Of a stretch of 64,000 bases of DNA, positions 8,901 to 48,837 are shown piece after piece. The stretch is from positions 3,568 to 67,567 of the forward strand of contig JBHPMF010000005.1 in the NCBI GenBank assembly GCA_042563375.1, in the 5' to 3' direction. The stretch's first letter is position 1, and every line of letters begins with the position of its first letter. Source of the stretch: Elusimicrobiota bacterium (GTDB lineage: Bacteria; Elusimicrobiota; Elusimicrobia; JACQPE01). Position numbers and translations under genes: made by a program. The notes below the pieces were generated by a model. The model saw nothing but the letters and a program-made list of their open reading frames with translations, did not search any database and was not told where the DNA came from.

Positions 8901-11900
8901 TTGGAGCTTATTTGCGAGAAGTCAAAGAAGGGAACATCACCTTAAAAGACGGGGTAAAACTCTCTGACATGATAGAAGTCAATCAGACTTCAGCTTCATC
9001 CACTCTTCTTGAGGCAATACTTGCCAGGAAGAACGCGAACATCTCAGGCATGTCAGGAAGCCTTGAGGTTGTTAAAGAAATGGTAAGAGCCGGGATCGGT
9101 TCTGAAGTTGTCAGTGTTAAGACAAAAGCGCCCGGCAAAAGAGAAACAACAGTATATAACCCCATAAAACCCGATCTCACTTCACATGTCAAACAGATGG
9201 CCCTTGATGCTGTAAAAAGCGCAGAGAAAGGAAGAGGAGCTCTTGTGTGCGACCTTAAACACTCAAAAGCCATAGAGCGGATGGTAAAAGAACTTTCCCC
9301 TGACGCTAAAACATACAGGATAGATGACGCGACTTCTAAAGCAAAGATAGTGGAGATTACCAGGAACGCAGGAAAAGAAAAAGCAATTGTTTTCACAAAC
9401 AAAAGAGCCATAGAAGGCGCTGATTTCAAGGGAGATATAGATGTATTGGTCAATGCTGACCATTTGAACTCATTTAACTCGATACAGGCCATGGGCAGAG
9501 GAGGAAGATCAAAAGGCACGGTAACGCGCGCAAGTTTCTATTACACGCAAGACACTTTGACCACAATAAAGGATTTCATGGGCAAAAAAGCCAATAAGAC
9601 TTTAAAGAAAGCCATGATCGAGAAACTGGGCAAAGCAGAAGACCCGGTAATTGCCAGGGCTTACGAGAAAGCATTAAAAGGCAGGAATCTCTCCTCTGAG
9701 CAGGCAATAAAGCTTGCTAATGAGGTAAACCTCATAAAAGACAAATCAAGCGCTGCTTTTAAGCTCATCAATGAGGGAATAGACTACCTTGCAGTGGATA
9801 GCGTCATAAAACAAGCAGCGCTCATGTCAGAGGAAGCTTCTCTTTCAGGAGCTAAAAAAGTATTAGACACTACAATGAGAAAGCTCTTAAACGGAGAGAT
9901 CGGTCCCGGAGAAGCAGCTCTCAAGGAACTCTCCTATGACAACCCCCTTAAAGTCGCTGATAATGCGTTCGCCAAGGCGAAACTCAAAGCTGATGCAGTG
10001 TTCCCGAACCTTATAAAAGAGCTCTCAAGCAAGAAAGGAACCAAAAAGATCACAAATTACCTTAAGAACCATGTTAAAAACCTTGAAGCAATAGAAAAGA
10101 TAGGAACAGAGAATATTGTAGAAGCTCCAAAAGGCTCTCTTGATTCTTTTAAATACGCTACATCCTTAAAAGAAGTGATAGCAGTAAGCAAGAAGCTCGC
10201 AAGAGAAACAGTTCTTCCTCAATTAAAGACTTCCTCTTCCCGTAACGCAGCAGCCGGTATGCCGCAATCTTCTGCGAGTTCTGGTAACACGGGGGCTCGT
10301 CCCCCGCTTTCCTCTGCTAGTTCCGGTAGTCGCATGCTTAAGCGTGCGTCTGCAAAACACTCAGATGGCACAGCAGAAGGAACACCCTCCCCCCAACCCT
10401 CTCCACTCCTACGCCAAGGCTACGGAGCATCTCCGACCCTCAAGGGCGAGGGAGCCAAAGGAAATCCCGCTTCCCCCTCCTCTGTCATTGCGAGGAGCAA
10501 CGCGACGCGGCAATCTCAAAAGCAGGGTGGCACAAGAGTCGAAGAAACGGAATTTATAAGCAGTTCACGTAAGCAAGGTATCACCGCATCCCTCCTATCC
10601 CCCATCTCCGGAATACACAAACTTATCCAGAATGCGAAAACCAGGATCTTTTCCAGAAAATCAAAAAGACCGGAACCCCGGTACAAGGGACAGCTGATCG
10701 ATGACGATCCTCTTCATCCTCCTTCTCAACGCAGCGCAAATAAAGAAAAAACATACACAAAATCCTATCCTTCCGGCAAACCTAAAAAAGCCCTCACCCT
10801 GGCTTTGGCCGCCACAGCCGGCATCCTCGCTTACTTCGGATTGCCGGCCGCGGGAGAGGCGGCAGAATTAGCCACTCAAAGCGTAGGCTCGCGCGCTGCT
10901 GAGCTTATTTTCGTTATCACTGCTGCGCCAGTTATTGCAATAGGGATGTATAGGGCGATCAAAGGCCAGTGGGCGCTCATGAAATCCGGGCGCGATAACA
11001 GCGCAGTCGTTGCGACCATAGAGACTGAAAAAATGCCTGGAACCTCGATGGCGCCTCCCCATGACGGCTCTGCGGATTCTAACAAGGCCGATCCTGCTGA
11101 ATCTTTAAGGGATGGAGTTATTCTGGATATGGATTTCGACTCCGACGGCAAGCCTGTTTATATCGTAGAGCAGGATGGAAAGAGGCATATGGTCATTGGC
11201 AACCGGGAGTATTACACTATCCAGAACCTGACTTTCGACTTTGGCAGCAGCAATTCGGTTTATTTCAAGGATACGCATGGGAAAAAGGTTGCGATCATTG
11301 ACGGCCAGGCGTATGACATTGCCCACCATATGACTTCCAGCCACGACGGCAAGCCGGTCTATTTCATAGAAAAAGACGGAAGGCAGGTCGTAGTCATATA
11401 TGGCCGGATATACGGCGCCATACAGGGCCTGACTTTCACCTTCGGCAATAAGTCGGTTCGTTTCATTGAAACTGGGTGGCTTCACAAGGACAAAAGGAAA
11501 AATGTGATTATCGATGGCCGTTTATACAATATCGTTTCCGCCTCGGTTTTCAGCTCTGGCAACAAGCCTTTATACGCAAAAACATCGGAAACTTCCATGG
11601 CTGCTCCGCATAAAATCACCCCGTCCATCTTCTCGCGCATAAGCAGTCTGTTCCAAAGAGTCAAGGGCAAGTTCTCATCCAAAAAGACAACCCACGGCGT
11701 AAAATCCTATGGTTCGCCGCGTAGAGGCAAAAATGTTCCTGTCCTGGTCCTTGCCGCCACCGCCGGCCTCCTCGCCTTTTTCGGCCTGCCGGCCGCGGGA
11801 GAGGCGGCTATTCTAGGCACCGATGCTGCGGCGGCTCAGCTGGGTTCCGATATAGCGAGAGTTATTGGTGATGTGGCTGAGCAGGTGGCTGTCGTCACCT

Positions 11901-48837: not shown

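Follow-up and report, generated by a model that had tools for sequence, protein, structure and literature searches.

Thirteen copies of a conserved signal-peptide-like helix at the module joints of a giant Elusimicrobiota protein: probable hairpins that staple it to the membrane

We describe a signal-peptide-like element that is repeated thirteen times within two adjacent giant open reading frames (ORFs), A and B, of an Elusimicrobiota bacterium. The window, by which we mean the whole stretch of DNA analyzed, comprises 64,000 nucleotides (GenBank assembly GCA_042563375.1, contig JBHPMF010000005.1, positions 3,568 to 67,567 of the forward strand). In the interpretation that we consider probable, the elements and the hydrophobic segments that follow them are procoat-like hairpins, by which a cytoplasmic megaprotein of many modules is fastened to the inner membrane at every joint. 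The elements had been noticed in a first-pass annotation of the sequence, and all 13 coordinates listed there translate in frame on the + strand, in the frames of the giant ORFs. The cassettes, each consisting of an element and its partner region, were numbered H1 to H13 in the order of their position (K/R, lysine or arginine):

H1, 10760..10957, + strand: element KKALTLALAATAGILAYFGLPAAGEAA, acidic loop, second helix LIFVITAAPVIAIGMY, then K/R
H2, 11702..11947, + strand: element VLVLAATAGLLAFFGLPAAGEAA and second helix
H3, 12101..12307, + strand: element LTLAATAGILAYFGLPGTGEAA and second helix
H4, 13844..14041, + strand: element WLLASVAGILAYFGLPGASEAA and second helix
H5, 18701..18907, + strand: element TLVFAATAGLLAYFGLPGTGEAA and second helix
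H6, 20021..20239, + strand: element SLFLAATAGLLAYFGLPGTGEAA and second helix
H7, 21122..21322, + strand: element SWVPWVLAPVVGFFAFFGLPSASEAA and weak second helix, with an amidoligase-like region next
H8, 26081..26473, + strand: element SWLPWLLAPTAALLAFFGLPEPAAAA and S/F/L-rich region with two palindrome copies, between a HEAT array and the ClpB-like module
H9, 28339..28662, + strand: element KKKVLTLKSFLLFALIPAAVFLAALSLPGISEAA and S/F/L-rich region, spanning the A/B junction
H10, 34891..35142, + strand: element SFLPWFLAPAIALLAFLGIPGASEAA and second helix
H11, 39526..39843, + strand: element MLLPLIALALASGFLALLGLPEAAS and S/F/L-rich region with a palindrome; the most divergent copy (32 bits)
H12, 42781..42996, + strand: element SFLPWVLAPAIALLAFFGLSSIGEAA and second helix
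H13, 46345..46653, + strand: element KLLLAFLPIVLLLTSIFMPGISEAV and two more hydrophobic stretches

Eight of the copies belong to ORF A and four to ORF B, and copy 9 (28363) lies between the stop codon of A and the first ATG of B, in frame B. All 13 are internal to the fused protein described below, where they occupy positions between amino acids (aa) 1,639 and 13,502; copy 9 would be N-terminal only if ORF B began at a non-canonical codon. Based on their sequences, the copies fall into two subtypes, namely LAATAG[IL]LAYFGLPGxGEAA in H1-H6 and SW/FLPWxLAPxxALLAFFGLPxxSEAA in H7, H8, H10 and H12, with H9, H11 and H13 as more divergent copies. A degenerate DNA pattern for the peptide L-A-[YF]-F-G-L-P-x3-E-A-A has seven matches in the window, compared with none in 100 shuffles. 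When a profile of the 13 copies was run against the six-frame translation of the window, it returned exactly those 13 at 32-57 bits, and the next best match scored -4.6 bits. The profile was built from the copies that it recovers, so that the positive scores are circular and the informative part is the lack of matches elsewhere: no copy was found on the other strand, in other frames, or in other genes or spacers of the window. A generic DNA repeat present in all frames and in intergenic DNA, the refuting condition named in the first-pass annotation, was not seen within the window. The element motif is also absent from the genuine signal peptides of the neighbouring genes.

The peptide, rather than the DNA alone, had been proposed to be under selection, on the grounds that H1 and H5 differ by eight synonymous and three replacement changes over 19 codons. 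This count is exact, and the wider comparison agrees with the proposal. For 21 codons of H1-H6, the pooled Nei-Gojobori estimates are pS 0.53 and pN 0.125, which corresponds to a ratio of nonsynonymous to synonymous substitution (dN/dS) of about 0.15 with synonymous sites near saturation; for all 13 copies together the ratio is 0.33. The element peptide is under purifying selection. Within 300 aa on either side of H1-H6 there is no mutual homology apart from overlapping windows and weak repeats, and therefore it is the cassette that is conserved and not a larger duplicated block. The copies H10, H11 and H12 differ in this respect, as they share a common upstream module of ~620 aa with 55-77% identity. 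Inspection of the alignment by eye also revealed a small-residue face, A-x-x-A-G-x-x-A-x-x-G, in the elements.

The two giant ORFs and the sequence at their junction are as follows:

Giant ORF A, 5867..28357, + strand: signal-peptide-like N-terminus, superfamily 2 (SF2)-like P-loop region, unannotated modules, HEAT repeats, and a C-terminal ClpB/ClpC-like double AAA+ module
Giant ORF B, 28288..48837, + strand: HEAT arrays, NHL propeller, WD40 propeller, and a ~620-aa module present three times, each copy with a GNAT-like domain at its end
A9 run gcgcAAAAAAAAAgtccTGA, 28342..28350, + strand: reads A_AAA_AAG in frame A, at the A/B junction

ORF A encodes 7,496 aa. Frame B is open already from 28288, and from its first ATG at 28444 to its end at 48837 it encodes 6,797 aa; in the public annotation ORF B starts at a later methionine (MVQTKK), giving 6,724 aa (P0121, NCBI). 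There is no ATG, GTG or TTG in frame B between 28288 and 28444, and no Shine-Dalgarno-like sequence was seen in 28288-28444. Frame B is -1 relative to frame A, and the point of the switch coincides with the A9 run. A one-base shift at this run joins A and B into a single protein of 14,323 aa, whose junction reads AKKKVLTLKSFLLFALIPAAVFLAALSLPGISEAA, and the lysine-rich n-region of element 9 straddles the junction in the fused product. We conclude that ORFs A and B are probably one ORF split at the A9 run. A stimulator of a programmed -1 frameshift was sought downstream of the run, and no stable RNA structure was found there (z 0.02); because of this, a homopolymer length error or transcriptional slippage appears preferable to a structured programmed frameshift.

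We analyzed the hydrophobic segments on the fused protein, using Kyte-Doolittle windows and charge counts to call transmembrane (TM) segments. The megaprotein has at least 30 hydrophobic segments, interspersed among HEAT, NHL, WD40 and AAA+ domains and grouped in 14 clusters, of which one is at the N-terminus and each of the other 13 is opened by an element. Outside the clusters there are only a few weak hydrophobic segments (aa 336-378, 544-567, 636-654, 3056-3079 and 13342-13365). The earlier statement that the elements always sit at module boundaries holds when compared with the Pfam map. Within each element, a basic run is followed by an uncharged stretch that extends to a near-invariant proline, and then by x-x-[GS]-E-A-A. 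The uncharged hydrophobic stretch up to the proline measures 17-23 aa in 11 copies, 26 aa in H3 and, by eye, about 17 aa in H13. This h-region has Kyte-Doolittle peaks of 1.5-2.4 and is longer than the textbook 7-15 aa. The basic residues reported to precede the element are indeed present, with one to seven K/R per copy (one in H13, two in H3 and H8, and four to seven in the other ten). The second hydrophobic helix, with further K/R after it, was upheld only in part. A hydrophobic segment does follow every element, with its peak 35-74 aa from the element start, but after H8, H9, H11 and H13 it is of low complexity and includes no clean helix. Downstream of H3, at 12386-12865, there are two more hydrophobic pairs without an element.

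The distribution of charges around the clusters is strongly asymmetric. Across all 13 cassettes, K/R density is 0.227 in the 20 aa upstream of the clusters (binomial p 3.5e-5), 0.016 inside them (p 1.5e-40; aspartate and glutamate, D/E, 0.041), and 0.188 in the 20 aa downstream (p 9e-3), compared with a background of 0.135 for the whole protein. The clusters are 56-123 aa long and include 16 K/R and 40 D/E in 978 residues. This pattern is the positive-inside signature expected of a helical hairpin that has two cytoplasmic flanks and a short acidic outer loop. A single-sequence AlphaFold2 (AF2) model of H6 gives a helix, an 8-residue break at GLPGTGEA, and a long helix, at low confidence (mean pLDDT 68).

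The soluble modules between the clusters were also examined for their likely compartment. Those mentioned below are located as follows:

Walker A motif AGTGTGKT (SF2 motif I-like, aa 725), 8039..8062, + strand: in the first module, with weak DEAD and Helicase_C matches around it
ClpB/ClpC-like double AAA+ module, 26504..28354, + strand: without a Clp_N domain, bracketed by H8 and H9
~620-aa module before H10, 33055..34914, + strand: ends in a ~150-aa GNAT-like domain (TDDP..MGxEPxxTCQ)
Paralogue of the ~620-aa module before H11, 37684-39543, + strand: ends in a GNAT-like domain
Paralogue of the ~620-aa module before H12, 40945-42804, + strand: ends in a GNAT-like domain
GNAT-like ~150-aa domain copies, 34333-34863, 38962-39492 and 42223-42753, + strand: motif TDDP..MGxEPxxTCQ..GQxKLA..ARxxLE..PALxVERLY..YRD

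P-loops are present at aa 725, 6936 and 7223 of the megaprotein. Modules of this type need ATP and must therefore be cytoplasmic, so that the number of membrane crossings between them has to be even, which fits the paired helices. The ClpB/ClpC-like module has 47-55% identity to ordinary ClpB/ClpC proteins. Its use as bait for orthologous giants was not productive, since the best 120 matches were all ordinary ClpB/ClpC of about 800-930 aa. The first module (window 7817-9766) carries AGTGTGKT and LIDEPQS, with its DEAD and Helicase_C matches ~350 aa apart. Both Pfam matches are sub-threshold (DEAD, E 0.002; Helicase_C, E 0.05), and a gathering-level SecA_DEAD match was not obtained; judged from its sequence, this module may be the counterpart of the divergent SecA-like motor of Omnitrophota giants. 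An amidoligase-like stretch comes right after H7 (E 4e-4), and PDB sequence searches with the SF2-like and amidoligase-like regions gave no match. Pfam additionally identified HEAT arrays and two propellers, NHL after H11 and WD40 after H12.

The ~150-aa domain that ends the module before H10, H11 and H12 has an invariant proline and an invariant cysteine, and no Pfam model matches it. Its AF2 model (pLDDT 88.8, pTM 0.86) has a Foldseek match to GNAT proteins (E 3e-4, TM-score about 0.5), and on the basis of this model the domain is predicted to have a GNAT acetyltransferase-like fold. The possibility that it is a cysteine protease acting on the joint, suggested by the invariant cysteine and a nearby histidine, was rejected, as the model matches GNAT acetyltransferases.

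Based on these data, the interpretation that we prefer is the following. Each element would act as an internal start-transfer (signal-anchor-like) helix that is oriented with its N-terminus in the cytoplasm and its C-terminus outside, and would pair with the next hydrophobic segment, by which the chain would return to the cytoplasm. The outcome would be a series of helical hairpins, each with a short, acidic and K/R-free outer loop, and 13 such hairpins would be placed at the joints between the modules of a ~14,300-aa megaprotein. We infer this topology and the route of insertion from the features described above. The sequence conservation of the element could reflect recognition by an insertase (YidC), by the signal recognition particle or by signal peptidase I, or else packing through the small-residue face. 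One of two hypotheses in the first-pass annotation, that positive-inside hairpins leave every soluble module in the cytoplasm, is thus in line with the charge pattern, with the element-led clusters, and with the modules that use ATP or acetyl-CoA.

Several points weigh against this interpretation. The TM calls were made from Kyte-Doolittle windows and charge counts alone. The partner region after H8, H9, H11 and H13 is an S/F/L/P-rich, low-complexity sequence encoded by a CT-rich DNA repeat and has no clear helix, and H13 may hold three hydrophobic segments, an odd number. A purely structural staple has no obvious need for the conserved proline (-6), small residue (-3) and alanine (-1). Comparative support is thin, as the element was found outside this protein only in a few Elusimicrobiota fragments. 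Finally, the start of ORF A is signal-peptide-like and, if exported, requires an extra TM segment, for which the candidate at aa 636-654 (window 7772-7828; Kyte-Doolittle 1.32, followed by RASGNRAKSK) is weak. The N-terminus itself (MFIRSIAVTLITALLITVPGIAPYQVLAA, window 5867-5980) resembles an ordinary signal peptide, and the ATG at 5879 has GAGGA 8 nt upstream. Our tentative reading is that an N-terminal region of ~600 aa is exported, that the segment at aa 636-654 returns the chain, and that everything beyond is cytoplasmic; it is kept tentative because of the weakness of this segment.

The conservation of the c-region leads to the most serious alternative, in which the topology is the same but every outer loop would in addition be cleaved by signal peptidase I, after [GS]-E-A. 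The polyprotein would then be converted into about 14 cytoplasmic proteins in fixed stoichiometry, tethered by the C-terminal element helix, by the N-terminal partner helix, or by both. We regard this as possible, but clearly the less probable of the two. In its favour, the c-region obeys the -3/-1 rule and has no proline at +1, and the sequence [GS]-E-A↓A (the arrow marks the candidate cut) is found five residues past the proline in 11 of the 13 copies, which places the proline at -6. P29 and A34 (-1) belong to the only four nearly invariant columns in the alignment of the 13 copies, and no features of the c-region are better kept than the proline at -6 and the small residues at -3 and -1 (12 of 13 copies). 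At this position H8 has AAA↓A, H11 has other AXA-type sites, and H13 has, by eye, S-E-A↓V. The divergent copies H8 (PEPAAAA) and H11 (SAAA) retain the proline and then small-x-Ala despite changes in the other residues, and the relatives P0122 (VNASA↓G) and P0124 (IAAAA↓T and ISEAA↓T) likewise retain the proline and AXA; outer-loop cleavage is therefore possible.

Other features of the element speak against such processing. The h-regions (17-23 aa to the proline) are near the upper limit of length for cleaved signal peptides, and typical of uncleaved anchors. We treated h-region length as a weak argument, however, since the uncharged stretches of the elements (21-25 aa) and those of genuine signal peptides in neighbouring genes (15-24 aa) overlap in length. 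The conservation of the h-region and the glutamate at -2 are not explained by the specificity of signal peptidase; this glutamate would help translocation of the loop driven by the proton-motive force. Furthermore, Ala-rich stretches are common after TM helices, no signal peptidase gene is encoded within the window, and the cleavage is a prediction from sequence. If the polyprotein interpretation is true, the G[LIM]P-x2-3-[small]-x-A cassette would be the first identified processing signal for prokaryotic giant genes, and lineage-specific cassettes elsewhere, such as the four LLSLLTWQILSWLFGAAAEHSS repeats of P0138, might serve this purpose as well.

The second hypothesis of the first-pass annotation treats each element as an internal cleavable signal peptide that exports the next module, making the ORF a periplasmic or secreted polyprotein. 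The elements do have signal-peptide-like n-, h- and c-regions; NHL and WD40 propellers, like HEAT or ankyrin repeats, are also compatible with an extracytoplasmic location, and the neighbouring ankyrin proteins carry signal peptides. Nevertheless, the second hydrophobic segment and the K/R cluster after every element would bring the chain back into the cytoplasm, the double AAA+ module of ClpB/ClpC type that comes directly after H8 needs ATP, and the SF2-like P-loop, amidoligase-like and GNAT-like modules use cytoplasmic cofactors. In this form the hypothesis is very unlikely. The part of it that survives is its core, the G/S-E-A↓A site of signal peptidase type with a c-region kept in 12 of 13 copies, and the part that fails is the export of the modules.

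It is similarly improbable that the element is a selfish or neutral DNA repeat without a function of its own, either an in-frame insertion resembling a miniature inverted-repeat transposable element or a Rickettsia palindromic element (RPE), or the relic signal peptide of once-separate genes. A DNA-level repeat family is detectable (D8/D12), and the synonymous closeness of the copies is uneven (five differences between H1 and H6, 14 between H2 and H5), which is compatible with duplication or gene conversion. A separate and truly DNA-like palindromic repeat is present in the loops after H8, H9, H11 and H13. On the other hand, the peptide is kept while synonymous sites are near saturation, copies are lacking elsewhere in the window, each copy is the opening helix of a hydrophobic cluster where modules join, and the element is conserved in the proteins of another organism. 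RPE-like repeats of Rickettsia are not confined to one frame or strand and are found in non-coding DNA as well, unlike the element, which in this window is restricted to the + strand and the giant-ORF frame.

The palindromic repeat just mentioned deserves a separate description. A CT-rich DNA-level repeat is found in the loops after H8 (two copies), H9, H11 and H13 (window 26207-26473, 28486-28640, 39655-39800 and 46471-46600, respectively). Its core is a perfect 8-bp palindrome, GTCATCCTGAA-N5-TTCAGGATCTC, with three exact copies against none expected, and the encoded peptide is SVILNLIQDLF or SVILNSFQDLS. In the H9 copy the loop carries an insertion of 30 nt, and the heptamer-like CTCAGTGGCTTAG repeats come after the palindromic core. 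It looks like an in-frame insertion of the repetitive extragenic palindrome (REP) or RPE type that supplies the S/F/L-rich ‘second hydrophobic’ stretch. In the related Elusimicrobiota proteins P0125, P0127 and P0134 we noticed a peptide, GDTILNSGELSIVSP, that likewise resembles a translated palindrome, judged from the peptide alone.

There is little likelihood either that the element is a recognition tag for a dedicated sorting enzyme, which would process its outer end or attach it to the envelope, be it a sortase or exosortase-like enzyme that recognizes [LIM]-P-G-x-[GS] or a rhomboid that targets the helix. Three copies read LPGTG and so fit LPXTG, the motif is at the predicted outer boundary of the membrane, like sorting motifs, and its conservation goes beyond what insertion alone needs. 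LPXTG, PEP-CTERM and GlyGly-CTERM signals similarly combine a short conserved motif with a TM helix and a basic cluster, but they are C-terminal and have the order motif, helix, basic residues. The order here is the reverse (basic residues, helix, motif), as the first-pass annotation had remarked in calling the element their mirror image, and the orientation is thus opposite to all known sortase-type signals; the element is also internal. The threonine is not conserved (LPAAG, LPGAS, LPSAS, LPEPA and LSSIG), scans of all 13 copies against NCBIfam and Pfam at E up to 10 found no sorting-signal family, and no candidate enzyme is encoded in the window. On account of the variable threonine and the lack of a model match, the sortase LPXTG reading was rejected.

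An exhaustive profile search with the module that precedes H10-H12 returned 76 proteins. About 70 representative clusters include the GNAT-like domain, which in most cases forms the C-terminus of a soluble protein of 900-1,500 aa; HEAT repeats are present in some of these proteins. In about 50 of the 70 homologues, 10-90 aa separate the domain from the end of a soluble protein, and no TM segment follows. In the protein studied here, and in P0122-P0125, P0129 and P0138, the domain is followed by a TM hairpin and another module. The closest relatives are fragments annotated as proteins of Elusimicrobiota metagenome-assembled genomes (MAGs; P0122-P0125), and the more distant ones include Omnitrophota HEAT-repeat giants with the GNAT-like domain (P0128 and P0129).

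After the module, P0122 and P0124 continue with KKNLLSLIALPALAGILAFLG[MI]PDI..A and then with a second helix and K/R, and P0124 ends with KVSSWLPWVLAPATVFLGLVGMPGISEAATL, a second copy of the element. P0122 thus has a single element and P0124 has two (41.7 and 23.8 bits), and a second helix with K/R comes after each of them. The second element of P0124 precedes a region like that after H12 of our protein, but has a different module upstream; modules have therefore been reshuffled while the elements stay at the joints. These element-bearing relatives form a small comparative set made of fragments. Word-index homology searches with the H1-H4 region and with the element alignment found no other copy. 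The degenerate DNA pattern gave one match in 185,579 species genomes and five in Joint Genome Institute (JGI) metagenomes, all of which are chance matches with in-frame stops or in unrelated proteins. Exact look-ups of the window proteins, P0121 and P0124 for genomic context had nothing on record.

Recurring cassettes of other kinds were seen in two of the giant relatives. P0138 has four copies of GLKSLVLLSLLTWQILSWLFGA[AM]AEHSSGAVQAG together with a less conserved second helix (aa 2849-2900, 3556-3610, 4216-4275 and 4823-4880); by eye, this cassette appears to belong to a larger module that is itself repeated. In P0129, TM cassettes of two types recur, at aa 512/3103 and 1569/2070. Conserved first-helix cassettes may be general in TM-studded giant proteins.

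In the M13 procoat protein, a short acidic loop joins a signal peptide to a TM anchor, after which comes a basic tail, and the protein is inserted as a hairpin by YidC with the help of the membrane potential. The cassettes resemble procoat in the basic n-region, hydrophobic helix, AXA-type c-region, K/R-free acidic loop, second TM helix and basic flank. The procoat has 73 aa and a single N-terminal hairpin, whereas the hairpins predicted here are internal, repeated 13 times, and have large folded modules on both sides. By analogy, we propose procoat as the closest mechanistic model. An internal signal sequence as a site of cleavage is known from the Bradyrhizobium cytochrome b/c1 precursor FbcH.

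Signal peptidase I follows a -3/-1 rule, with positions -2, -4 and -5 free (PMC9360617). Its Sec substrates share with the element the n-h-c architecture, a proline near -6, and small residues at -3 and -1; they differ in being N-terminal, whereas the element is internal, has a conserved h-region of 17-23 aa with a stop-transfer segment next, and exports no large domain. With respect to the earlier remark that a signal of the order basic, TM, motif had not been described, this is the ordinary Sec order, and what is unusual is the internal position, the 13 repeats, the conserved sequence and the partnership with a second helix. In viral polyproteins, such as those of flaviviruses and the core/E1 region of hepatitis C virus (PMC5402940), one long ORF likewise encodes a polytopic product with internal signal-like helices at protein boundaries. 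The cleavage sites there are on the non-cytoplasmic side, and would be on the same side here if cuts occur. In contrast, the viral proteins belong to the eukaryotic endoplasmic reticulum and their cleavage is demonstrated, whereas here cleavage is only possible and the large modules all appear to be cytoplasmic.

The giants of Omnitrophota are studded with TM segments and include HEAT, NHL and WD scaffolds, AAA-type ATPases and a divergent SF2/SecA-like P-loop (10.1101/2023.11.21.568195; 10.64898/2026.06.07.730766), and a ‘membrane-anchored cytoplasmic-domain’ topology class has been predicted for them (10.64898/2026.06.07.730766). Like our protein, they are ORFs of many thousand residues with numerous TM helices between soluble modules, and P0128 and P0129 share its GNAT-like domain; unlike them, our protein has its nearest relatives among Elusimicrobiota MAG proteins. 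Since this architecture has already been described, cytoplasmic modules anchored by hairpins are not a new kind of arrangement. West-Roberts et al. 2023 state that there is no information on the cleavage points of giant proteins (10.1101/2023.11.21.568195), and term searches in both papers (10.1101/2023.11.21.568195; 10.64898/2026.06.07.730766) did not find a conserved signal-peptide-like cassette, helix pairing or candidate cleavage points. What is new here is probably the conserved signal-peptide-like first helix, paired into hairpins at module joints in a different phylum.

Giant genes raise the questions of how their products are arranged in the membrane and whether they remain one chain or are cut into pieces, and the locus provides a concrete and testable handle on both. 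The cassette marks every module joint, the charge pattern predicts the topology, and the c-region predicts a precise cut site. The giants look like chains of former proteins joined by membrane staples, because the GNAT-ended module ends a stand-alone soluble protein in most homologues and the hairpin replaces that end.

Rfam and tRNA scans of the window were empty. Two adjacent paralogous ORFs of 285 and 294 aa (3573-4430 and 4434-5318, - strand), with near-identical N-termini, are located divergently upstream of the giant ORF, and no Pfam match was found for either. Genes for small proteins with signal peptides occupy both flanks (584-3217 and 49141-53978). They include an anthrax-lethal-factor-like (ATLF) domain protein (584-1624) and a homologue of M74 murein endopeptidase (2261-3217) on one side, and two ankyrin-repeat proteins (49141-50187 and 50219-51415) on the other.

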